Below are positions 1 through 17,942 of a DNA stretch of 46,149 nt, one piece after another (within the stretch, counting starts at the first letter, position 1; every line of letters begins with the position of its first letter). The notes under the pieces are model-generated. The model worked only from the letters and a program-made list of their open reading frames with translations. It was not told the origin of the DNA and ran no database searches. The position numbers and the translations under genes were made by a program. This stretch comes from Myxococcota bacterium (lineage in GTDB: Bacteria > Myxococcota_A > Polyangia > Polyangiales > Sandaracinaceae), in contig JAYZQJ010000044.1 in assembly GCA_036149055.1 (NCBI GenBank), forward strand, positions 1 to 46,149. The letters run 5' to 3'.

Positions 1-375
1 TCGCGCTTCGCGCTCGCGCCGCGACCCCAGCGACGGGGCGCTGGGGGCCCTGCGGCTCGCGCTCGCGCTGCGCGCGAGCTGGCCGCCCGCTGCCGCGGGA
101 TCGAACACAGGTGGTGGTGCGTGCGGCGAGCTCGCTGCGCTCGTCGCCTGCCCTCGCGCTTCGCGCTCGCGCCGCGACCCCAGCGACGGGGCGCTGGGGG
201 CCCTGCGGCTCGCGCTCGCGCTGCGCGCGAGCTGGCCGCCCGCTGCCGCGGGATCGAACGGCTCGAGTGGCGCGTGCGGCGACCTCGCTGCGCTCGTCGC
301 CTGCCGTCGTCTCGGGTCAGTGTGGTGGAAGCGGGCGGGGGGGCCTCGGCGCCATCGTTTGCCACCTCTCGAGCT
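1..375. repeat. Structured interspersed repeat (REP/BIME-like): two tandem ~153-bp units plus a tail
   Basis: 1-153 and 154-306 are near-identical. There is an internal stem CCCCAGCG-ACGGGG-CGCTGGGG. The unit and tail recur as a reverse complement at ~45857-46075. Confidence 0.9.
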
Positions 376-440
376 TCGTGGCCGTCGCTTCTGGCGGGCG
401 AAATTGGTGGGGGCGGGAAAGCGGCTCATCCTGGATCGGC

Positions 441-3400
441 GTGACGCGCGTCGGTGGCCGCTATCGGATCGAGGCCCAGCTCGGAGAGGGCGGGATGGGG
501 GCCGTCTTCTGGGCGGTGGACGAGCGGGACGGGAGCGACGTGGCGCTCAAGCGCATGCTCCGGGATCGGCGCGCGGGGCGGCGGGCGCGCAAGGCGGAGC
601 TGCGGTTCCAGCGCGAGTTCCACACGCTCGCGTCGCTCGACCATCCGCGCGTCGTGCGCGCGTTCGACTACGGCGTCGACGAGGGCGGGCCGTACTACAC
701 GATGGAGCTGCTCGAGGGGGAGGACCTGCGGGACCGCATGGGCCGCGAGGGGCCGATGGCGCCGCGCGAGGTGTGCGCCGTGCTGCGCGACGTGGCGTCC
801 GGGCTCGCGGCGCTCCACGCGCGCGGGCTGGTGCACCGCGACCTCAGCCCCCGGAACGTGCGGCTGGTCGACGCGCGGGCGGTGCTCTTCGACTTCGGCG
901 TGCTGGTGGACGCGGGCTGGGTCGGCGACGTGGCCGGGACTCCGGCCTTCACCGCGCCCGAGATGCTGCGCGGGGTGCCGGTCGACGGGCGCGCCGATCT
1001 CTTCGCGCTGGGGGTGCTCGCCTACGGCATGCTCACCGGCAAGCGACCCTACGACGCGCGCTCGATGGTCGAGCTCGAGAAGGCGTGGAGCGTCCCGGTG
1101 GAGCCGCCGTCGGCCCTCGCGCCGGTGCCGGAGGCGCTCGAGGACCTGGTGCTCGATCTGCTCTGCCTCGAGCCGCTGGGCCGGCCGCCGAGCGCCGCCG
1201 TCTTGATCGACCGGCTCACCGCGCTCGGTGACCTCGAGCCGGACCCGGGGCTCGCGGTGCGGCCCGGCTACGTGGCCTCCGCCGCCTTCGTCGGGCGCGA
1301 GGCCGAGCTCGAGCGGCTCGAGGCGCTGCACGCCGACGTCGCGGCCGGCGAGCCGCGCGCGTTCTATGTCGAGGCCGAGAGCGGCGGCGGAAAGAGCCGC
1401 CTGCTCCAGGAGCTGGCCATCCGCGCCAAGCTGCAGGGCGCGCTCGTGCTGCGCGCCTCGTGCGAGGAGGCGGAGGGCGGGCCCCACGCGGTCGTCGGCG
1501 CGCTCGTCGAGGAGGCCTTTGCCAGCGCGCCCGAGGAGGCGGGGCGCGCGTCTCGTCCCGACGCGCCGCTGCTCGCGAGGGTGTTCGACGCGGTCCGCGA
1601 GGCGCACCCGGGCGTGGCCCTCGAGAGCGAGGTGGGCGAGCCGGCCGAGGACCGCATGCGCCTCCAGGCGGCGGTGCACGGGTTCTTCCGGCGGCTCGCG
1701 CAGGAGCGGGTGGTGGTCGCGCTGGTCGACGACGTGCAGCGCGCCGACGAGGCCTCGGCCGCGGCGCTCGCCGGCCTCGCGCGCTCCGGGCTGGTCGGTC
1801 TCCTGCTCGGGGTCGCGCGTCGCCTCGGCGAGTCGGTCCGCGCGCCGGCCGCGATCGCCTCGCTGGCGGAGCTCGAGCCGCGCGTCCGCCTCGGCGGCCT
1901 CGACCCGGACGGGATCGCCGCGCTGCTGCGCTCGCTCTTCGGCGACGCCGCGAACGTCTCGAGGCTCGCGCGGCGCATGCACGAGGCGACCGGCGGCAGC
2001 CCGCTCTTCTGCACCGAGCTGGCCCGGCAGCTCATCGAGACCGACGTGGTCCGCTACCGGGACGGCAGCTGGATCGTGCCCGAGGACGTCTCGCTCGAGG
2101 GGCGCGCCGACGGGCTCCAGGGCGCGATGCGGGAGCGGGCCCGGGCGCTCGCGGGCGGGGCGCGCGCGGTCGGCGAGGTGCTCGCGCTCCACGGCGGCGA
2201 GCTGTCCCTCGAGGTGGCGCTCGCGCTCGCCGCGGGGCAGGGCTGCGAGGGCGACGCCGGCTTCGGCGCCATCGCCGATCTCCAGCAGCAAGGGTTCTTG
2301 ATGGACTCGGGCGAGGCCCTGCGCTTCCGCCACGACTCGATGCGCGAGGCGCTGCTCGCCGGCCTCGACGACGAGCGACGGCGCGCGCTCCACCGCGTGG
2401 TCGCGGAGGCGATGCTGGCCGAGGGCGCGCGCGGGGACCCGCTGCGGGAGGCGCGGGCGGGGTGGCACGCCCTGCGGGGCGGCGACGAGGCGCGCGGCGC
2501 GGGCATGCTCGAGCGCGCCGGCCGTCGCCTCTACGAGGCTCAGGCCCTCGCCGACTGCCTCGCCCCGCTCGAGGCGGCGCTCGAGGCGCGTCGCCGCCAG
2601 GCCGCGCCCGACGCGGTGATCGCGGAGCTCTCCTACATGCTGCTCGCCGCCGGCTGGGTGTCGGGGCGTGAGGTCGGCGAGCGTCACGCCGAGCCCGCGC
2701 TCGACCTGTACGCGGGGCTGGGCGGCCTGCGGCACGCGGAGCGATGGCGGCGGCTCCTGGGCTGGCGCCTCGCCTTCGTGGCGGGGCTCGCCTGGGCGTG
2801 GGCGCGATGGCTCTGTCGCCTCGGCGAGGCGCGCGGCCCGACGCCGCTCCGGGCGCTCAGCTTCTTCGCGGTCGGCCTCTCCTACGCCACCGCGCTCGCC
2901 TACTCGGCCAACCGCAAGGCCGACGTCGACGCGCTCGTCGCGCGAGCCGATCCGTTCCAGGCGCTGAAGGGGCAGCCGCCCTACGCGGCGTATCTCAGCG
3001 TGCACGCGATGCGCGACATCCTCCACGGTCGGCTCGGCGCGGCGGCGGCGCACCTGACCGAGGCGCGGGCCCTGGCGACCCGGGAGCGCCTGAACCCGCT
3101 GAGCCCGGACGCGCGACGGCTGGCCGACGCGGGCTGCCGCTCGATGCGGGCGCTGGTCGACGTGAACCAGTTCGACGCGCGGCTCGTGGACGACCTCGAG
3201 GCGATGAGCGAGTCGGGGCTCGCCTTCTACGCGCACGCCGCCCAGACGGCGCGCATCGTGCGGCATCGGTATCGGGGCGAGGAGAAGAAAGCGCGGGCGC
3301 TGGAGGAGGAGACCGAGGCGACCAGCCTCGCGCTCGGCTCCTGGTCGACCGATCTCCAGCGGCTGCTCTTCGCGCACCCCGCGTACGCCTTCACTCACGA

Positions 3401-4199
3401 CGTCGAGGGGCTCAAGCGCTGCCTCGACGCGCTCGAGCGGCGGGTGGGCGAGGGGATGGAGCTGTCGGTGCGGGTGACGCTCACCCGGGTCGAGATCGCG
3501 CGGGAGCGCGGCGACTACGCGGGCGCGCTGGCCCTCGTGACGCCGCTGCTCGAGTCGCTCGACGAGGGCGACCACCTCTTCCGGCAGTACGCCGCGTCCG
3601 CCGCCGCTCAGACCGCCCTCGAGGCCTACGGCTACGAGCTCGCGCTCCGCTACGCGCGCCTCGGCCTCGACGGAGGGCGCGACCCGCAGACCCGCGTGCT
3701 GCTGCCCTGGCTCCGGTGCCAGCGGGTCCACGCCCTCGCCGACGACGCGCTCGGGCGCACCGACGCCGCCATCGAGCGCCTCGAGGAGGCGATCGCGATC
3801 GCCGAGGAGCGCGGCGTCGTCGTACACGCCGGGGAGCTCCACGAGGCGCGGGCGCGGATCGCGTTCGCGGCCGGCGACCGGCTGCTCTTCGAGCTCCACC
3901 GCGTCAAGGCGAGCGACTGGCTCCGGCCGACCGAGAACCCCGGGCTCATCGCGGTGGTCGAGCGCCTGCTCGAGATGGATCGCGAGGCCGAGGTCCGCCC
4001 GGTCGATCCGCGCCGTCGCCGCCCGGGCGCGAGCTCCACCGAGAGCAGCTACGACCGCTCGAGCGCTCCGTCCAGCTCGGGGGAGCACGACGCGACGGTC
4101 GTCGAGGGCGCCGCGACCCGCGCGCGCACCCAGTCCGTCGGCACCGCTGACGAGGACGCGACGGTCGTCGAGTCCCCTCGCGGCTCCCGCCGGGAGTGA
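441..4199 (+). CDS. Ser/Thr protein kinase fused to an AAA/STAND-type ATPase and a helical (TPR-like) C-terminal region
   Basis: Kinase motifs LGEGGMGAV, VALK, HRDLSPRN, DFG and APE. ATPase motifs FVGREAEL, Walker A ESGGGKS and Walker B LVDD. Start moved to GTG 441 because 111-440 is mostly the repeat element. Confidence 0.9.
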   Translation: MTRVGGRYRIEAQLGEGGMGAVFWAVDERDGSDVALKRMLRDRRAGRRARKAELRFQREFHTLASLDHPRVVRAFDYGVDEGGPYYTMELLEGEDLRDRMGREGPMAPREVCAVLRDVASGLAALHARGLVHRDLSPRNVRLVDARAVLFDFGVLVDAGWVGDVAGTPAFTAPEMLRGVPVDGRADLFALGVLAYGMLTGKRPYDARSMVELEKAWSVPVEPPSALAPVPEALEDLVLDLLCLEPLGRPPSAAVLIDRLTALGDLEPDPGLAVRPGYVASAAFVGREAELERLEALHADVAAGEPRAFYVEAESGGGKSRLLQELAIRAKLQGALVLRASCEEAEGGPHAVVGALVEEAFASAPEEAGRASRPDAPLLARVFDAVREAHPGVALESEVGEPAEDRMRLQAAVHGFFRRLAQERVVVALVDDVQRADEASAAALAGLARSGLVGLLLGVARRLGESVRAPAAIASLAELEPRVRLGGLDPDGIAALLRSLFGDAANVSRLARRMHEATGGSPLFCTELARQLIETDVVRYRDGSWIVPEDVSLEGRADGLQGAMRERARALAGGARAVGEVLALHGGELSLEVALALAAGQGCEGDAGFGAIADLQQQGFLMDSGEALRFRHDSMREALLAGLDDERRRALHRVVAEAMLAEGARGDPLREARAGWHALRGGDEARGAGMLERAGRRLYEAQALADCLAPLEAALEARRRQAAPDAVIAELSYMLLAAGWVSGREVGERHAEPALDLYAGLGGLRHAERWRRLLGWRLAFVAGLAWAWARWLCRLGEARGPTPLRALSFFAVGLSYATALAYSANRKADVDALVARADPFQALKGQPPYAAYLSVHAMRDILHGRLGAAAAHLTEARALATRERLNPLSPDARRLADAGCRSMRALVDVNQFDARLVDDLEAMSESGLAFYAHAAQTARIVRHRYRGEEKKARALEEETEATSLALGSWSTDLQRLLFAHPAYAFTHDVEGLKRCLDALERRVGEGMELSVRVTLTRVEIARERGDYAGALALVTPLLESLDEGDHLFRQYAASAAAQTALEAYGYELALRYARLGLDGGRDPQTRVLLPWLRCQRVHALADDALGRTDAAIERLEEAIAIAEERGVVVHAGELHEARARIAFAAGDRLLFELHRVKASDWLRPTENPGLIAVVERLLEMDREAEVRPVDPRRRRPGASSTESSYDRSSAPSSSGEHDATVVEGAATRARTQSVGTADEDATVVESPRGSRRE

Positions 4200-10200: not shown

Positions 10201-11307
10201 ATGGAGACCATCGGCAAGGGCCTGAGGGACAACTTCGACTGGCCGCTCTTCGTGACGGTGGCCGCGGTCTGCGTGATCGGGGTCACCAACCTCTACTCGG
10301 CGACCAGCGCGGCCACGTCCGCCCTCAGCGAGCTCTACATCCAGCAGATCTACTGGCTGACCCTCGGCGCGGGCGTCGCGGTGCTCATCGTCGCCATCGA
10401 CTACCGCCACTTCGAGCGCTTCGGCTGGGCGGCTTACGGCGCGGGCATCGTGTTGCTCCTGCTGGTCTTCCTGCTCGCGCCCGAGATCCGTGGATCCCAG
10501 CGCTGGATCCGGATCGGCAGCTTCTCGCTCCAGCCGAGCGAGCTGATGAAGATCGTGCTGATCGTCGCGCTCGCGAAGTACCTGCACAACGACCCGAAGA
10601 CCGAGGGCCGGACCCTCAAGGATCTCGTGATCCCGGGGCTCATCCTCGCCGTGCCGATGACCCTGATCCTGCTCCAGCCGGATCTCGGGACCGCGCTGAT
10701 CCTCGCGTTCATCTTCGGCTCGATCATGCTGCTGACGAACCTGAAGCTGCGCTCGCTCTTCACGCTCGCGGCGGCCTTCGTGCTCAGCGCGCCGCTCACC
10801 TGGACCTACCTGCTCAAGCCCTATCAGCGCGAGCGGCTGACCAGCTTCATGGACCGCGAGGCCGACATCCTCGACGCGGGCTGGCACGCCCACCAGTCCA
10901 TCGTGGCCATCGGCAGCGGCGGCTTCTGGGGCAAGGGCTTCATGCAGGGCACCCAGAACCAGCACCGCTTCCTGCCCGATCAGCACACCGACTTCCCGTT
11001 CCCCGTCTGGGCCGAGGAGCAGGGCTTCCTCGGGGTCGGGCTGCTCTTCTTCCTCTACGTGTTCCTGATCCTGTGGGGCCTGAAGGTCGCCTCGCAGGCG
11101 AAGGATCGCTTCGGCGCGGTGGTCGCGGTCGGTGTCAGCGCCTTTTTCTTCTGGCACACGATCATCAACCTCGCGATGGTCAGCGGCATGGCCCCGGTCG
11201 TCGGCGTCACGCTTCCGCTCTTCAGCTACGGCGGGTCGAGCGTCCTGACCTCGATGATGGGCATCGGTCTGCTGATGAACGTGTCCATCCGACGCTTCAG
11301 CTTTTAG
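10201..11307 (+). CDS. rodA: Rod shape-determining protein RodA (SEDS)
   Basis: QPSELMK, QPDLGT, IGSGG..GKG, HTDF..P..AEE and LPLFSYGGSS motifs. Confidence 0.95.
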   Translation: METIGKGLRDNFDWPLFVTVAAVCVIGVTNLYSATSAATSALSELYIQQIYWLTLGAGVAVLIVAIDYRHFERFGWAAYGAGIVLLLLVFLLAPEIRGSQRWIRIGSFSLQPSELMKIVLIVALAKYLHNDPKTEGRTLKDLVIPGLILAVPMTLILLQPDLGTALILAFIFGSIMLLTNLKLRSLFTLAAAFVLSAPLTWTYLLKPYQRERLTSFMDREADILDAGWHAHQSIVAIGSGGFWGKGFMQGTQNQHRFLPDQHTDFPFPVWAEEQGFLGVGLLFFLYVFLILWGLKVASQAKDRFGAVVAVGVSAFFFWHTIINLAMVSGMAPVVGVTLPLFSYGGSSVLTSMMGIGLLMNVSIRRFSF

Positions 11308-11393
11308 CGGCCACGATTCCGGACACGGAATGTCCCATGCCGGGGAGAGGCAAATCCCCGCGCGGGGTGTAATCTCCGCTGCGCGGAGGGTAC

Positions 11394-12248
11394 ATGCGGG
11401 TGACGCCAGAGGTGGGGCTACCGGTGGGAGACCGGTACACACTGATCGGGCCGCTGGGGGAGGGAGGCCTGGGCACCGTCTGGGAGGCCGAGGACGCCTC
11501 GCTGCGTCGCCGGGTCGCCATCAAGCTCGCCCGCGCCGACACTCCGCTGACCGACGAGCACCTCGCCCGCATCGAGCGCGAGGCGCGGCTCGTCGCGCAG
11601 CTCGACCATCCCCACGTCGTGCGCGTGTACGACTACGGGGTCGACGCCGGCTTCGGGCCGTTCATCGCGATGGAGCTCCTCCGCGGCCACAGCCTCGAGG
11701 ACGAGCTGGAGGAGAAGGGCACGATTCGCCTCAAGGAGATCATCGAGTGGCTGGCCCCGGTCGCCCATGCGCTCGACGAGCTCCACCACCGCGGCGTGGT
11801 CCACCGGGACGTGAAGCCGCCGAACATGATGCGGGTCGAGCAGCGCGGTGAGCCGATGGTGAAGCTCCTCGACTTCGGCATCGCCGCGTTCCTCGACGGA
11901 CACGAGCGCCTGACCGAGACCGGCTGCATCGTGGGCACCCCGGAGTACATGGCGCCCGAGGTCGTCGAAGGTGCGCTCGCGACCGCGTCGAGCGACGTCT
12001 ACGCGCTGGCGGTGGTGGCGTACGAGTCGCTCTCCGGCGCGCTCCCGCATCAGGGCGGCTCGCCGATGGAGATCCTGCGCGCGAAGGCGACCCGGCCCGC
12101 CCACGCCCTCTCCGAGAGCACCGGCCGCATGTTCTCGCTGCCCCTCGAGGAGGCCTTCGCGCGGGCGCTCCACCGCGATCCGAGGCACCGCTGCCGGAGC
12201 GCGGGGGAGCTGGTGGACCTGCTCCGCGGGTGCATCCGCGGCCGTTGA
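11394..12248 (+). CDS. Ser/Thr protein kinase (catalytic domain only)
   Basis: LGEGGLG, VAIK, HRDVKPPN, DFG and GTPEYMAPE motifs. Confidence 0.93.
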   Translation: MRVTPEVGLPVGDRYTLIGPLGEGGLGTVWEAEDASLRRRVAIKLARADTPLTDEHLARIEREARLVAQLDHPHVVRVYDYGVDAGFGPFIAMELLRGHSLEDELEEKGTIRLKEIIEWLAPVAHALDELHHRGVVHRDVKPPNMMRVEQRGEPMVKLLDFGIAAFLDGHERLTETGCIVGTPEYMAPEVVEGALATASSDVYALAVVAYESLSGALPHQGGSPMEILRAKATRPAHALSESTGRMFSLPLEEAFARALHRDPRHRCRSAGELVDLLRGCIRGR

Positions 12249-12302
12249 CCCGGTTCGATCTGCTAGCGTGTCCCTCGCCCGGGATGGAGCGAGGGGAGAG
12301 GT

Positions 12303-14465
12303 ATGGACGCGGTCAACAGGATGGTCGACGCGCAGTGGGCGGTCGACGGAGTGGAGCCGGTGGGCTGGAGGCCCGTGGGCGCCACGCTTCGAGAGGCGCT
12401 GAACGAGCCCTACGTGCTCACGCTGGATCTCCTCCGGGATCAGGCGGGGCAGGACGCGCAGCCCTTCCTCGGTAGGCGCTGCACCCTGCGCCTCAGCCGG
12501 GGCGGCGTGGACCAGACGCTGCACGGCATCGTCACCCGGGTGCGCGACGAGGAGGAGGAGGCCGACCACGGGGCGCACGCGCGGCTCACGATCGAGCCGG
12601 CCTTCGCCGCGCTCCGGCACCGGATCGACACCCGCATCTTCCAGGACATGACGATCCCGCAGATCCTGGAGCGCGTGCTCGGGCAGGGGCTCGGGCCGTT
12701 CGGTCGCTCGGTGTCGCTCGACCTCCGGGAGAGCTACCCGGCGCGCGAGTTCACGGTGCAGTACCGCGAGAGCGATCTCGACTTCGCGTGCCGCCTCATG
12801 GAGGAGGAGGGCATCGGCTTCCACTTCGAGCACCCCGACGAGGCCGAGGTGCTCACCCTCTTCGACGCTCGCGAGCACCACGCGGCCGCGCGGGGCGAGG
12901 ACGGGCACACGCTGCCGTTCAGCGACCGCGAGGACGGCTGGCGCGGAGGGCGCGAGCACGTCCTGACGCTCAGCCCGGAGCGCACGATCACCGGCACCGG
13001 GGTCTCGACCAACGCGTTCGACTGGACGCACCCGGAGCGGCCGATCGTCGGCACCACGCTCGAGGCGCCGGAGCAGGCGGTGCTCGAGGACTACGTGGTC
13101 GACGCGCCGATCACCCTTCACGACTACGCGGGCGCCTACCGGGATCACGACGCGCTGCGCCGGCTCCGCGTGCACCGCGAGCTGCAGACCCGCGACGGCG
13201 AGCGCTTCGCCGGGCGGACCACCTCGCTCGCGCTCCGGGCCGGCGTGCGCTGGGCGCTCTCGGGTCACCCGCGCTTCGAGCTCGACCGGGAGCTCGTGGT
13301 GACGGAGGTGGAGCACCGCTGGGGGCGCCACACCGACGACGCCGGAGACGAGGCGGCGGACGGCGACTACCTGAACGTGATCCGCTGCCTGCCCGCCGAG
13401 ACGCCCTGGCGCCCGGACCGGGTGCGCCCGAAGCCGCGGGCCTACGGCCTCCAGACGGCGATCGTGGTCGGGCCGCCGAGCGAGGAGATCCACACCGACG
13501 AGCACGGCCGGATCAAGGTGCACTTCCACTGGGACCGGCACGGCAACCGGACCGACGCCGACTCCTGCTGGCTCCGCGTCGTGCAGAACATGGGCGGCTC
13601 GGGCTGGGGCTTCTCGTTCGTGCCGCGCATCGGCATGGAGGTCGCCATCTCGTTCGTGGACGGCGATCCCGACCGGCCGATCGTGACCGGCGCGATCTAC
13701 AACCCGGACAACCCGCCGCCCCTGAACCTGCCGGAGAACAAGACGCGCACGACCATCCGGAGCAACTCGTCTCCGGGCGGCGGCGGCTTCAACGAGCTGC
13801 GGCTCGAGGACCTCGCCGGCCACGAGGAGATCTTCCTCCACGGGCAGAAGGACTGGAACACGATCATCCGGAACGACCTGACCCGCTCGGTCGGTCACGA
13901 CGAGGCGCAGCAGGTCACCCGGAACCGCTCGCGCTCGGTCGGGGTGGACGAGTCGGTCTCGGTCGGTCGCAACCGGCAGCACTCGGTCGGCGAGAGCGAG
14001 ACCATCCAGGTCGGCACCGATCGGGTGCGGCAGGTCGGGCGCGACGAGGACGTGCTCATCCAGCGGAACGCGACCCACACCATCCTCGGCAGCCTCACCC
14101 GCACCATCAAGGACGCGTTCGGCGACAACATCGCCAAGAGCCTGGTGCAGAACATCGGCATCAACCGGCTCATCAACGTGCTCGGCTTCAGCGAGACGCA
14201 GATCGTCTTGCACGAGAAGCGTCAGATCGGCACCAGCCGCGAGACCAAGATCGGCGAGGACGACGTGCTCGACGTGAAGGGCGACTGGAACGTGAAGGTC
14301 GGCGGCAAGGTGCGCATCGAGGCGGGCGACGCGTCGATCACGCTCGAGGACGGCAACATCACCATCGCCGGCGCGGACATCATCCTCGAGGGCAGCGGCC
14401 AGATCGTCGAGCGCGCCACCGGGGACGTCGCCATCAACGGCGCCACCATCAAGCTGAACTGCTGA
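12303..14465 (+). CDS. vgrG: Type VI secretion tip protein VgrG (TssI)
   Basis: RIFQ, VQYRESD..F..RLMEEEG, EEIHTDEHGRIKV.F.WDR, SCWLRV, PRIGMEV, GDPDRP and NEL motifs; 8-residue gp5-like beta-helix repeats; ends IKLNC. Start could be 12321. Confidence 0.95.
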   Translation: MDAVNRMVDAQWAVDGVEPVGWRPVGATLREALNEPYVLTLDLLRDQAGQDAQPFLGRRCTLRLSRGGVDQTLHGIVTRVRDEEEEADHGAHARLTIEPAFAALRHRIDTRIFQDMTIPQILERVLGQGLGPFGRSVSLDLRESYPAREFTVQYRESDLDFACRLMEEEGIGFHFEHPDEAEVLTLFDAREHHAAARGEDGHTLPFSDREDGWRGGREHVLTLSPERTITGTGVSTNAFDWTHPERPIVGTTLEAPEQAVLEDYVVDAPITLHDYAGAYRDHDALRRLRVHRELQTRDGERFAGRTTSLALRAGVRWALSGHPRFELDRELVVTEVEHRWGRHTDDAGDEAADGDYLNVIRCLPAETPWRPDRVRPKPRAYGLQTAIVVGPPSEEIHTDEHGRIKVHFHWDRHGNRTDADSCWLRVVQNMGGSGWGFSFVPRIGMEVAISFVDGDPDRPIVTGAIYNPDNPPPLNLPENKTRTTIRSNSSPGGGGFNELRLEDLAGHEEIFLHGQKDWNTIIRNDLTRSVGHDEAQQVTRNRSRSVGVDESVSVGRNRQHSVGESETIQVGTDRVRQVGRDEDVLIQRNATHTILGSLTRTIKDAFGDNIAKSLVQNIGINRLINVLGFSETQIVLHEKRQIGTSRETKIGEDDVLDVKGDWNVKVGGKVRIEAGDASITLEDGNITIAGADIILEGSGQIVERATGDVAINGATIKLNC

Positions 14466-14466
14466 C

Positions 14467-15498
14467 ATGGCCGAGGTCTCCGACGACTCCATGCCGGGGC
14501 TGGGCATCGCCCGCCTCGGAGATCCGACCGCCTCCGGCGGCGCCATCACCACCGGGGACATCTCGGTGCTCATCGAGGGCGTCGCGGTGGCGCGCCTCGG
14601 CGACGTGGTGACCGACCCGCTCCTGATGGGGTGTGGGCAGGTCTCCACCCACGCGCCCAACGTCTACGCGGTGAGCTCTCCGGTCGCGCGTCAGCTCGAT
14701 CGAGCCGCCCCGAGCGCCGGCGCCGCGGCGGCGGGACGCCCGGGCGTGCTCGGGCCGAACAGCCGCGGCGAGACCCTCGAGGGCGACCCCGACGGCTCGC
14801 ACGCCTACTCGCGCCACGCGATGAGCGACGGCACCCAGCACGCCGAGGCGCGCATCGTGCAGTACCAGGGCACCTACGGCGACGACGTCGCGAACGCGAC
14901 CTCGGGCGGGGTCCCCGGCCGGGTCAGCGGCGGCGACTACGCGCTCGGCGAGGGCCGCGCGATGCTCTCGCAGTCGTCCGAGCAGGGCTTCGCGCTCGAG
15001 GGCGCGGCCGAGGCGACGCTCGCCCGGGTGAGCGGGACCGAGATGCTGACCAACGGCCAGGGCAGCTCGGTCTACGCCTCCGGGCTCGGTCGAGCCGGCA
15101 CCGCGCGGGCGAGCGGGACCGCGCTCCTCGGCCGCAACCCGGAGACGGGCGACGCGGGCGTCGGCGTGCAGGGCGAGCTGATGGCGGCCGCGCTCGAGGG
15201 CGAGGTGAGCGGCGGCTGGGAGTTCCCCTTCTTCGGCTGCCGCTGGGGCGGCAACGTGACCGGCGGAGGCAGCCTCGCCTCGCTCGGCGCCGGCGGGCGC
15301 GCGGAGATGGGCTGGGACGGAACCGATCAGCGCTACGAGCTCGGCCTCGGCGGCAAGCTCGCCGCGCTGGTCGGGCTCAAGGCCGACGTCGAGCTCTGGG
15401 GCACCTGCGCCTCGGACGCGCCGGAGAGCGGGGCGCAGGGCGGCGGCCCGGCCCAGATCGCCCGAGGCGCCTCGACGGTGATCGTGGGGGACCGGTGA
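14467..15498 (+). CDS. PAAR-domain protein with a large internal Gly/Ala-rich insertion (candidate specialised effector)
   Basis: IARLGD, VLIEG..VARLGD and PVARQLD at the N-terminus. The closing PAAR strand IARGASTVIVGD is at the extreme C-terminus. Starts 1 bp after vgrG. Confidence 0.8.
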   Translation: MAEVSDDSMPGLGIARLGDPTASGGAITTGDISVLIEGVAVARLGDVVTDPLLMGCGQVSTHAPNVYAVSSPVARQLDRAAPSAGAAAAGRPGVLGPNSRGETLEGDPDGSHAYSRHAMSDGTQHAEARIVQYQGTYGDDVANATSGGVPGRVSGGDYALGEGRAMLSQSSEQGFALEGAAEATLARVSGTEMLTNGQGSSVYASGLGRAGTARASGTALLGRNPETGDAGVGVQGELMAAALEGEVSGGWEFPFFGCRWGGNVTGGGSLASLGAGGRAEMGWDGTDQRYELGLGGKLAALVGLKADVELWGTCASDAPESGAQGGGPAQIARGASTVIVGDR

Positions 15499-16592
15499 CC
15501 GAGAGCTTCCCGCTCCCGGACGCCGCGCCCGACGGCTACGTGCGCGCGCAGGTCTTCGTCGAGGAGGCGCCGGCGCTGGCCTGCTCCACCGTCCTTCCCG
15601 CCCACTTCCGGCCGGTGCGCGCGCCGGTGAAGGTGCCGGGGCGCGATCGCCTCATCGGCACGCTCGGCACGTTCCGCGACCCCGACGACAAGCGACCGGT
15701 CGAGGTCGAGATCGTCTGCGGCTGGCTGGAGCGCGAGGTGAGCCCGGCCGACTGGCTCGGCGGCCTGCTCAGGATGCTCGACGCCGAGGTCGTGCACCGC
15801 CGCGACCTGCCGCGCGAGAAGGGCGGCGACGCCGTCGACCTGCTGACCCGGCGCGCGGTGGGCGGCGACACCTTCGTCTCGCGCTGGTCGGTGCACAAGG
15901 AGGGGCGCAACGACGGCGCCCACGTCTTCGCCGTCGAGGCGCGCGCCCGGAGCGACGTCTACGCCGACGCGGCCGAGTCGCTCGCCCTCGCCGCCGGCGG
16001 CTTCGCGCCCGACGCGCCGTCGGCCTGGCCCTACGCCGAGCGCCTGAAGGGCATCGGCCGCGGTCAGCCGGGCGACTTCCACACCTACTACCCGCTCAGC
16101 TGGAAGGCGGGCGAGCTCCCGGCCGAAGACGGCACGCAGAAGATCGTCGTCGACCGCGAGGTCGGCGGCGAGGTGCTCGCGCAGATCGAGCTGCGGGTCG
16201 GCGTGGACCTGACGCCGGACGAGCTGACCTCGATGTATCTGCTGCCGATGGCGGAGCGAGGCCTGGCGCCGGAGCTCGCGCCGCTCGCCGAGCGCGCGCC
16301 CTTCGGCGGCCTGGAGGCGGCGTGGGAGACCCGCGGCACCGCTGCGCCTTCCGATCATCGCGGGGCCCCGCCGATCGACCTTCATCTCACGCTCGGCACC
16401 CGCGGCCCGGTGACCTACCTGTTCGGCCTCTTCGGCCCGTCCCGCGCCCTCGCCCCCGACCTCGCCGCCGTGCACGAGCGCGCCTACGGCACGGTCCTCG
16501 AGCAGCTCGTCACCGCCGACGTGTCAGCTCGTGAGCCAGGCGGTGAGGATGGCGGTGAAGGCGAGGAGCCCGAGGGCGGCGGCGCCGAGTAG
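15495..16592 (+). CDS. Hypothetical protein coupled to the PAAR gene (candidate immunity protein or adaptor)
   Basis: GTGA overlap with the PAAR stop; 365 aa of globular-looking sequence; no signal peptide seen. Confidence 0.7.
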   Translation: MTESFPLPDAAPDGYVRAQVFVEEAPALACSTVLPAHFRPVRAPVKVPGRDRLIGTLGTFRDPDDKRPVEVEIVCGWLEREVSPADWLGGLLRMLDAEVVHRRDLPREKGGDAVDLLTRRAVGGDTFVSRWSVHKEGRNDGAHVFAVEARARSDVYADAAESLALAAGGFAPDAPSAWPYAERLKGIGRGQPGDFHTYYPLSWKAGELPAEDGTQKIVVDREVGGEVLAQIELRVGVDLTPDELTSMYLLPMAERGLAPELAPLAERAPFGGLEAAWETRGTAAPSDHRGAPPIDLHLTLGTRGPVTYLFGLFGPSRALAPDLAAVHERAYGTVLEQLVTADVSAREPGGEDGGEGEEPEGGGAE

Positions 16593-17942
16593 GACGAAGT
16601 GGATCGTGGTGAGCTGCGGCCCCGAGGCCCGCGAGGGGCGGGGCGGCGGCGCCTGATCCAGCGGGGCTCGCTCGAGCGGCTGCGTCGTCTTCGGCGTGTG
16701 CGCGAGCGGCGAGGGCACGTCGATGAAGCTCTCGTCGGTGCGCTCCGCCTCCCAGTCCAGCTCGGGGGCGCGGATGAGCGGGTTCGTCTTGGGCGCGTTC
16801 TCCGCGCCGCCGTCGGCGAGCGCCATCGGCAGCGTCACGTGGGCGGCGCCGCTGACGACGGTGGGCTCGGCGGCGATCGGGTCGGGCGCGGGCGTCTCGC
16901 GATCGATCTCGGTGATCCCGTCGGCCTCGTCGTCGAACGACGGGAAGCGCTCCTGGTCGGTCTGCGCGTCTCGCTCGTCGAGCCCGCCGCCGGTCGGGAG
17001 CGCGAGGCTCAGGAGATCGTGGGTGTCGACGGTGTCGCTCGGCAGCTCGGTCGACGGAGGCGGCGCGGGAGGCTGGGGCGCGAAGGCGCCGAGGGCGGCC
17101 CGGCGCTCCTTCTCCTCGCGCGCCGGCACCAGCGGGCGCAGCGCGTGATGCAGATCGCGCGCGCCCGGTCGCTCGGAGGGCGACGCCGCGAGGAGCGCGT
17201 CGAGGATCTTCACGAGCGCCTCGGGCACGTCGGGGGCCACGTCCGGCACCGGGTCGTAGCTCACGAGCCGGACCTTGATCAGCGTCGCGAGCGGCGTGGG
17301 CCCGTCGAACGGCGGCTGCCCGGTCACCGCGTGATAGAGGGTCGCGCCGAGCGAGAAGAGATCGGTCTTCTCGGTGATCGGGCGCTCGAGCGCCATCTCC
17401 GGCGAGAAGTAGATCGCCTCGGTGCCGACCCGGGAGGCCTCGATGGTGAGCCGCCGCTCGAGCGAGGCGGTCGCGAAGCCGTGTACCCGGGCGCGGCCCT
17501 CGCGGTCGATCGCGATCGCGTCCGGGGAGAGGGCGCGGTGGACCAGCGCGGGGCGCATCGCGTGGGCGGCCTCGAGCGCCTCGGCCACGTCCCGCGCGAT
17601 CAGCGCCGCCCACTCGGGCGGGAGCGGGCCCTCGTGCTGCGCCATGACCTCGGCGAGCGAGACGGTCGGCGCGTCCTCGTGCGCCACCCAGGCGAAGCCG
17701 TCGGCGACGCCGTGGTCGAGCGGGCGCATCGCGGGGCCGTCGACCGGCAGGCGCGAGGCGCTCGCCGCGTCCTCGAGGAAGAGATCGAGCTCGCGGGGAT
17801 CCTCCTCATCGGGGAGCCGGACCAGATCCAGCCGCACCGGTCCCGTGGCCTCACCGTCGGTGCGCCGCGCCTCGCGCGCGGCTCTCGGCGTCGTGTCGTC
17901 GAGAGGTTTCGCGAGGGTGTAGGGGCCGACCCGATCGAGCAT
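16524..17942 (-). CDS. Ser/Thr kinase-like pseudokinase with an acidic Pro/Thr tail and a C-terminal TM anchor
   Basis: Retains YFSPE and TDLFSLG..LY..TG.PPF. Has HRALSPDA in place of HRDLKPxN and HGF in place of DFG. No Gly-rich loop or VAIK lysine. Confidence 0.8.
   Translation of the reverse strand: MLDRVGPYTLAKPLDDTTPRAAREARRTDGEATGPVRLDLVRLPDEEDPRELDLFLEDAASASRLPVDGPAMRPLDHGVADGFAWVAHEDAPTVSLAEVMAQHEGPLPPEWAALIARDVAEALEAAHAMRPALVHRALSPDAIAIDREGRARVHGFATASLERRLTIEASRVGTEAIYFSPEMALERPITEKTDLFSLGATLYHAVTGQPPFDGPTPLATLIKVRLVSYDPVPDVAPDVPEALVKILDALLAASPSERPGARDLHHALRPLVPAREEKERRAALGAFAPQPPAPPPSTELPSDTVDTHDLLSLALPTGGGLDERDAQTDQERFPSFDDEADGITEIDRETPAPDPIAAEPTVVSGAAHVTLPMALADGGAENAPKTNPLIRAPELDWEAERTDESFIDVPSPLAHTPKTTQPLERAPLDQAPPPRPSRASGPQLTTIHFVLLGAAALGLLAFTAILTAWLTS

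Follow-up and report, generated by a model that had tools for sequence, protein, structure and literature searches.

The cargo of PAAR proteins is normally sought at the termini of the chain. In the window analysed here, the whole 46,149-nucleotide contig of a Sandaracinaceae bacterium, the gene at 14467-15498 appears to hold its cargo internally, which raises the questions of whether the PAAR fold is indeed interrupted, what the interrupting domain does and what role falls to the gene behind it. An earlier note on the bare sequence had described the product as a PAAR spike split by about 245 residues of Gly/Ala-rich beta structure, possibly a membrane-inserting or pore-forming domain.

Results

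The split PAAR fold and its zinc site

The open reading frame was of coding-type composition throughout, with a GC3 of 0.92-0.98 in every segment, and an overlapping frame at 14631 was dismissed as its off-frame shadow. The stretch 13800-16800 was present whole in one contig and without indels in all four public runs from four studies (4/4 assemblies), which rules out a frameshift or fusion artefact. Among the variants listed, 10 of 16 in the effector gene and 9 of 11 in the partner gene were synonymous. The public runs containing the locus were mostly marine. A contig from an RNA library also covers it, an observation unable to demonstrate transcription, and no sigma-70 promoter or terminator was found within 11200-16800.

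The AR..D motifs of the effector were located at residues 15, 42 and 74 (span 14-78) and the closing-strand pattern at 331, in agreement with the earlier placement of three motifs at about 14-78 and a closing strand at the very C-terminus. The Pfam PAAR profile PF05488 matched with 40.4 bits (cut-off 27), although only over residues 17-81, corresponding to profile positions 1-63 of 70. The AlphaFold2 model, calculated from a 91-row alignment with a mean pLDDT of 78.5, superposed on the PAAR protein c1882 (4jiw_D) with Z 13.3 and an rmsd of 1.6 Å for 83 of 93 residues (model range 12..341), and the PAAR proteins T4 gp5.4, phiKZ and P1 aligned with Z 11.7-13.3. Since the structural alignment extends to residue 341, the C-terminal strand completes the PAAR fold in the model, the point on which the earlier reading hung. 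Residues 12-82 and this strand together superpose on c1882 and the intervening 245 or so residues therefore sit inside the third PAAR loop. The model thus predicts a complete conical PAAR fold despite the split. Both the split and the position of the cargo within a PAAR loop are borne out by this superposition and by the large family of homologs described below. As a control for chance, the closing-strand pattern was found to end 14 of the 9,603 genome ORFs of 250-450 aa. A profile of 12 short PAARs mapped its positions 20-81 to the N-terminal part and 82-95 to the last 14 residues of the homolog P0005; on the 14467-15498 protein its alignment was weak and out of register.

Table 1. Coordinates of the vgrG-effector-partner genes and of the segments of the effector within the window.
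Feature	Position	Strand	Basis
Orphan VgrG spike, 720 aa, no evident C-terminal toxin	12303..14465	+	TIGR03361 497 bits (cut-off 186); Phage_GPD, OB and gp5-C domains
PAAR::beta-sheet effector, whole ORF, 343 aa	14467..15498	+	Translation, Pfam, AlphaFold2 model, structural alignment
N-terminal PAAR part, residues 11-82, three motifs, without Zn ligands	14497..14712	+	PF05488 at residues 17-81; ligand columns
Flexible Pro/Gly/Ala linker out of the third loop, residues 83-112	14713..14802	+	pLDDT < 50 at 86-118
Open Gly/Ala-rich sheet of about 10 long antiparallel beta-strands, inserted at residues 113-314	14803..15408	+	DSSP of the model
Last four strands, residues 258-312, candidate membrane-inserting hairpins	15238..15402	+	Amphipathic across the family
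Return linker, residues 315-326	15409..15444	+	pLDDT < 50 at 319-325
Closing PAAR strand, residues 327-342	15445..15492	+	Structural alignment to residue 341; conserved in the family
Conserved partner, 365 aa, two tandem PsbP/Mog1p-fold (Eag/DcrB-like) domains, no signal peptide, probable chaperone	15495..16592	+	Model, fold matches, synteny

The roles of the PAAR zinc ligands, including the Cys after motif 3, were taken from the accessible part of PMC7773334. The His that usually follows the first motif had already been reported missing; its absence is confirmed, but it is not an isolated loss, as none of the four usual His/Cys ligands is present in the effector (S23, D50, M54 and no Cys after motif 3). 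The H-C-H-C set is kept in 84 of the 91 family rows. All four ligands are also absent in P0047, P0050 and L002, and these Zn-free forms have a common D-P-x-x-G loop. In 87 of 91 rows the family insert begins directly after the Cys that trails motif 3. The zinc site lies at the tip of the PAAR cone, so that the insert would leave from the tip end.

Genome setting and a second locus

The stop codon of vgrG lies 1 nt ahead of the PAAR start and the effector stop overlaps the partner gene by 4 nt. This trio is located between the kinase gene that follows mreC-pbp-rodA and a convergent kinase gene. Ser/Thr kinase genes are found at 111-4199, 11394-12248 and 16524-17942, the latter two directly flanking the module, which is ordinary for myxobacteria. 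The GC content, the kinases and the resemblance of same-order loci to named Polyangium loci suggest a myxobacterium. The 9.9 Mb genome encodes TssC and two TssM proteins, on contigs other than that of the effector, together with 15 vgrG matches spread over 11 contigs, including three consecutive vgrG genes on each of C150 and C240. The family profile detected only one further PF05488-like PAAR (C108). A vgrG gene was also present within the retrieved stretch for 28 of the 35 domain-bearing loci. The linkage to vgrG and the T6SS genes of the genome are as expected for a specialised T6SS effector.

A second locus of the same genome (C205:16202-21531, with L103:706-3969) comprises vgrG, DUF2169, a DUF4150::beta-domain protein, a homolog of the partner and a small lipoprotein-like ORF. 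The DUF4150 protein scored 39.9 bits against the beta-domain profile, compared with 18.5 for the reversed sequence and 5.8 for the best of 50 shuffles. Pairwise BLAST of the insert with this domain was not significant (E 0.22), and the link rests on the profile.

A family of split PAAR proteins and other carriers

In a phmmer search the 14467-15498 protein retrieved only itself and no PDB sequence. Searches with a single sequence detect next to nothing of this family, which was reachable only via relatives and profiles. A 13-row profile searched against 1.84 billion representatives gave 45 matches at E <= 1e-30 and 540 at 1e-10. The best 150 homolog clusters comprised 80 split PAARs with the same insert, seven split PAARs with a further C-terminal extension, 41 clusters without an insert match, 21 fragments or unresolved cases and one intact PAAR ending in the domain; the insert profile was built in part from rows that it then classified, whereas the closing-strand pattern is independent of it. 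The split family therefore numbers 87 or more clusters when grouped at 50% identity; sequence identities are mostly 18-32%. Nothing follows the closing strand in 80 of these 87. Several of the other seven hold enzyme-like domains, and the extension of P0080 is lipase-like (Lipase_3 E 0.038, NF047388 E 5e-12).

Named carriers span Enterobacterales and Bacteroidota and include Enterobacter, Pantoea, Kosakonia, Raoultella, Erwinia, Brenneria, Rahnella, Apibacter, Fibrella and Polyangium; partner genes were also found in Cronobacter and Pectobacterium. A further PAAR protein of the E. cloacae T6SS-1, reportedly named by Donato in 2020, could be a member as well. One family member and a 352-member Atlas cluster are labelled FlgH; none of the 91 members matches the FlgH Pfam domain (0/91), and a flagellar L-ring identity was rejected as misannotation.

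The domain is not confined to split PAARs. It stands at the end of the intact PAARs P0097 and P0104, and at L069:6563-7687 the arrangement is reversed, with an intact PAAR apparently inserted within the beta-domain and followed by the partner. Within the phylum, three genomes of a single genus (L080, L081 and L100) have it behind an Flp-like N-terminus, a likeness judged by eye and not matched by Pfam, and the next gene is a partner with a signal-peptide-like N-terminus. The one Flp-like locus that was extended (L100:3437-12985, G401:C598) proved to be a Tad cluster with TadE/G, CpaB, secretin, ATPase and T2SSF, and the Flp-like::beta-domain protein is possibly a toxin-tipped pilin. Neighbours among the Atlas predicted structures were LXG, WXG100, T7SS-signal, VgrG and RHS clusters, at TM values of 0.35-0.50 that make them leads only.

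Conversely, the third loop can hold other cargo, namely a 75-aa remnant in L093, an unrelated domain of about 330 aa in L099, another in P0144 and a further Ala/Lys/Glu-rich segment of about 550 aa in P0120. The split PAARs at L093:2520-3044 and L099:345-1607 have, before the closing strand, a short alternating strand resembling the last strand of the beta-domain, which may be what the partner recognises.

Fold and amphipathic strands of the insert

Apart from PAAR, a Pfam search over the 91 members gave only one weak OprD match, and no Pfam, NCBIfam or PHROG family covers either the insert or the partner. Foldseek searches with the effector returned nothing at E <= 0.001 against the PDB and only PAAR-sized significant matches against viral models. 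The best non-PAAR fold matches of the insert were parts of outer-membrane barrels, with Z <= 8.6 and rmsd values of 5-17 Å (about 10 Å for the best), a level that is common for unrelated models. In our reading these matches indicate an open, curved sheet in the modelled insert and do not imply homology. LptA/LptC and lipovitellin were also among the matches (Z 6.1-6.9). In the model, which is that of a monomer, the sheet stays open without forming a closed barrel, and four of its ten strands are amphipathic.

This pattern is a property of the family. Across the 91 homologs one face of the last four strands is 47-72% VILFMWY and 1-8% charged, compared with 4-19% and 24-38% on the other face, whereas the first six strands have mixed faces and are not amphipathic. 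The 14467-15498 protein retains the pattern. In accordance with the lack of a catalytic motif reported earlier, no catalytic residue is conserved in the insert, where only Gly231 and Gly303 reach 90%. The proposal of a membrane-inserting or pore-forming domain gains indirect support from the amphipathic end strands, from the membrane immunity-like neighbour of its relatives and from the variety of secretion carriers; it is weakened by the partial nature of the barrel matches and by members with a separate enzyme-like C-terminal domain.

The tandem PsbP/Mog1p partner

The model of the partner (pLDDT 90.4) matched PsbP (Z 15.1), Tsi3 (10.5), TplEi (9.9), PA94/EagT6 (9.8), DcrB (9.1) and SciW (7.6). 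The protein thus has the DUF1795/DcrB-like fold twice over, yet gives no PF08786 match. TplEi/Tli4 and Tsi3, which we take to be periplasmic immunity proteins of enzymes, share the PsbP/Mog1p fold with the partner, and TplEi also has two domains, but in a different arrangement (rmsd 5.3 over 139 residues). Eag chaperones act as dimers that clasp their client, and by analogy the tandem partner could provide such a clasp within one chain. A complex prediction for beta-domain and partner, with a score of 0.00 (mark 0.32), is taken neither for nor against their interaction.

With the 15495-16592 protein as query (E <= 1e-25) a partner was found downstream of the effector in 5/5 same-family loci, and a profile of five myxobacterial sequences extended this to enterobacterial and Bacteroidota loci. 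Among 35 distinct domain-bearing proteins, the partner lay downstream in 28/28 that end no more than 52 aa past the domain and in 0/7 with longer tails, the latter apparently being one Polyangium-like clade in which two had less than 500 nt of flank. Of 401 genomes from the phylum, nine were hit by the effector profile, two of them through the PAAR part only, and the partner profile hit the same nine plus one, related genomes not being independent. The two genes are therefore strongly, though not exclusively, linked: the partner was also seen behind PAARs that carry other inserts (L093, L099) and behind a small, unrelated ORF (L094), and the partner loci L094, L095 and L098 match neither insert nor PAAR. 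In the Polyangium-type loci L033-L036, L038, L040, L043 and L012 a conserved tail of about 55 aa extends past the closing strand and no partner was seen; in L035 a DUF4123 gene lies downstream of the effector. The partner of the Rahnella plasmid locus (L014:13437-14531) is annotated as two consecutive ORFs.

As judged by eye and hydropathy, the N-termini of the three pilin-linked partners resemble signal peptides and those of the T6SS-linked partners do not, although three T6SS-linked rows with uncertain starts also scored 1.65-1.8 on hydropathy. The partner thus seems to be located wherever the beta-domain waits before release, which favours a chaperone. We therefore regard a chaperone as more likely than an immunity protein for the downstream gene.

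An immunity-like gene in related loci

In 17/17 loci (L014-L030) a membrane protein of 122-154 aa with three to four predicted helices is encoded between effector and partner. These proteins form one family, three distant ones being recovered with leave-out E values of 2e-7 to 3e-4, and five of the loci contain extra orphan copies. Immunity genes against membrane toxins usually show this pattern of a membrane protein with orphan copies. A different gene, of 143 aa, occupies this position in Fibrella (L031). In Apibacter (L029:4600-5199) a lipoprotein-like, single-domain copy of the first half of the partner lies between the membrane gene and the full partner.

No gene separates effector and partner at 14467-16592, in its five relatives, in C205, in L069 or in the pilin loci, and the profile of the immunity family found nothing among the 75,605 ORFs of the genome, which is 96% complete. 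Self-protection in this clade may come from the partner doubling as immunity protein or from an unlinked immunity gene, or the targets may be non-kin.

Discussion

Relation to known effectors

Split PAARs are known from the prePAAR effectors, which have Eag (DUF1795) chaperones, as in Tse6/EagT6 and Rhs1/SciW (Ahmad et al. 2020, PMC7773334). As far as the accessible part of that paper goes, the two systems are alike in a PAAR whose two segments lie apart in the chain, a membrane-type element joined to PAAR on either side, a Mog1p/PsbP neighbour and a place next to vgrG. They differ in the site of the split (after motif 3 here, between motifs 1 and 2 in prePAAR), in the insert (a beta-sheet of about 245 aa as opposed to transmembrane helices), in the C-terminal toxin, which the beta-insert family usually lacks, and in the partner, a downstream tandem protein of about 350-365 aa with no PF08786 match instead of a dimer of 140-aa Eag. 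In the 14467-15498 protein, motifs 1-3 are contiguous and the insert, all beta, follows motif 3. The system is prePAAR/Eag-like in logic and not a member of the prePAAR family; we regard it as a variant of the specialised PAAR effectors. The architecture had been put forward as new, and this holds for the beta cargo after motif 3, of which we found no description, but not for the splitting of a PAAR as such, known from the helical prePAAR insertions between motifs 1 and 2. The PAAR survey of Zhang et al. (2021, PMC8651086) describes, in its accessible part, long Part_1 and Part_2 segments and no long Part_3.

With specialised PAAR effectors that carry C-terminal toxins, as partially available descriptions give them, the family shares PF05488 plus cargo, vgrG linkage and, in many members, an immunity-like gene downstream; its cargo, unlike theirs, is internal. 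The nearest functional analogy is Bte3 of Bacteroides fragilis, a T6SS effector with a predicted open beta-barrel that is toxic only in the periplasm (PMC13402684, accessible part). Bte3 differs in being a cargo effector of 768 aa with beta-sandwich domains; its immunity protein is a lipoprotein and its tip is of the DUF4280 type. The same source describes Ate3, an 11-strand open-barrel adaptor of Bacteroides T6SS. TseVF was set apart by its described helical character, and Pse2, BetaH and a Tse6-like protein of E. bugandensis by their descriptions only, all from partial text.

No published description of the beta-insert family was found among openly accessible papers; the candidate lists of other toxin screens may include the domain unnamed. 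The family is not described in the accessible parts of PMC12861213, PMC10763514, PMC12994826, PMC9796082, PMC9424270, PMC12704120 and PMC12881460 or of bioRxiv 2023.03.28.534661, 2021.10.19.465003 and 2026.08.01.741415, and the supplements of PMC12994826 held nothing relevant to it.

Proposed mechanism and alternatives

On balance we lean towards reading vgrG-paar::beta-partner as encoding a specialised T6SS effector that damages membranes and has a chaperone of its own. The three genes would form an auxiliary type VI secretion module in which the split PAAR, to judge by its adjacency to vgrG and its modelled fold, would adopt the usual cone shape and sit on the tip of the VgrG trimer, while its third loop would carry the curved Gly/Ala-rich sheet on two flexible linkers. 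Like an Eag dimer in one chain, the partner may keep the amphipathic strands covered in the cytoplasm before the effector is loaded. Once fired by the T6SS, whose genes lie elsewhere in the genome, the beta-domain would reach the target envelope, where the last four strands could insert and, probably as an oligomer, permeabilise the membrane; in enterobacterial and Apibacter members the three- to four-helix membrane protein would confer immunity. Delivery by T6SS is suggested by the upstream VgrG, by TssC and TssM in the genome and by vgrG near 28/35 loci. The occurrence of the domain on intact PAARs, on a DUF4150 protein and on Flp-like proteins points to a modular cargo, and the amphipathic end strands together with outer-membrane barrels as the best non-PAAR folds point to the membrane. 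The membrane protein of loci L014-L030, with its orphan copies in five of them, adds an immunity-like pattern. A chaperone is consistent with the EagT6/SciW/DcrB fold, the missing signal peptide of T6SS-linked partners, the loci with other inserts and the persistence of the partner beside the immunity-like gene. Against a toxin with a chaperone stand the partial barrel matches, the non-amphipathic first six strands, the C-terminal extensions in 7/87, the lack of a membrane immunity gene here and in 5/5 same-family loci, the partner fold shared by Tsi3 and TplEi, and Atlas links to T7SS that lie near or under TM 0.5.

Several of these points bear on the role of the partner. An overlapping account, in which the beta-domain is the toxin and the PsbP/Mog1p protein its immunity protein, or immunity protein and chaperone in one, is a serious candidate that we nevertheless regard as unlikely. 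It would account for the two-gene locus of this clade, where the partner is the only neighbour and overlaps the effector stop, and Tsi3 and the two-domain TplEi/Tli4 are immunity proteins of the same fold; the extra lipoprotein-like half copy in Apibacter also agrees with it. However, a partner without a signal peptide would be unable to meet a toxin arriving in the periplasm. In 17 loci it is retained alongside a separate membrane protein, it also follows unrelated inserts and an unrelated small ORF, and the retrieved loci showed no orphan arrays of it. The domain itself could alternatively be a translocation or anchoring module, a beta counterpart of the prePAAR helices that docks the tip in the target membrane and aids a separate toxin, stand-alone members then serving cargo encoded elsewhere. 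We hold this to be fairly improbable: 80/87 split members end at the closing strand, the domain often forms the C-terminal end of its carrier, which is the usual toxin position, and the stand-alone enterobacterial members have an immunity-like gene and orphan copies beside them. What fits an anchor is the tethering of both ends to PAAR with an Eag-fold neighbour, as in prePAAR effectors (PMC7773334, accessible part), the 7/87 members with C-terminal extensions, including the lipase-like P0080, and the absence of the membrane immunity gene from this clade.

Quite improbable, in our view, is a non-toxic sheet acting as clip or carrier, with a concave surface for a lipid, a surface receptor or another effector, in the manner of Ate3 or the LptA/LptC jellyroll. 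The LptA/LptC and lipovitellin matches, the existence of Ate3 and display on an Flp-like pilin, which would suit adhesion, are in its favour, but the membrane gene with its orphan copies looks like immunity, and high divergence combined with carrier swapping is typical of toxins. Finally, the gene of the Zn-free myxobacterial subclade might be a decaying or purely structural PAAR whose insert is no longer active, given the loss of all four ligands, the absence of an immunity gene and the orphan location between the rodA-kinase region and the convergent kinase. This appears very improbable, as the Zn-free form recurs in P0047, P0050 and L002 with its common loop, the frame is intact in 4/4 assemblies with mostly synonymous changes and the amphipathic pattern is retained.

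The third loop as a possible general cargo site

Beyond the toxin-and-chaperone reading of this locus, the third PAAR loop might tentatively be seen as a general, modular cargo slot, set apart by its position from both terminal extensions and prePAAR, whose commonest cargo would be barrel-pore beta toxins with a tandem chaperone, delivered from T6SS tips, as type VII substrates and from the Tad pilus tips of predatory myxobacteria; this wider view is possible, though we would not expect it to hold in full. Because the Pfam PAAR match stops at motif 3, screens would overlook the closing strand and take the insert for a C-terminal extension. The view of PAAR as nothing but a sharp point is called into question by a whole domain inserted beside the Zn-bound tip, and the 14467-15498 PAAR dispenses with the zinc ligands entirely. 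The family offers a testable candidate trio of effector, immunity protein and chaperone; its domain may be a new membrane toxin of beta type and its partner may represent a class of chaperones for beta cargo. The link to the Tad pilus bears on what the contact-killing pili of myxobacteria deliver. A further rearrangement was seen at L083:628-1866, an apparently circularly permuted PAAR in which a closing-type strand precedes motif 1 and DUF2515 follows motif 3.
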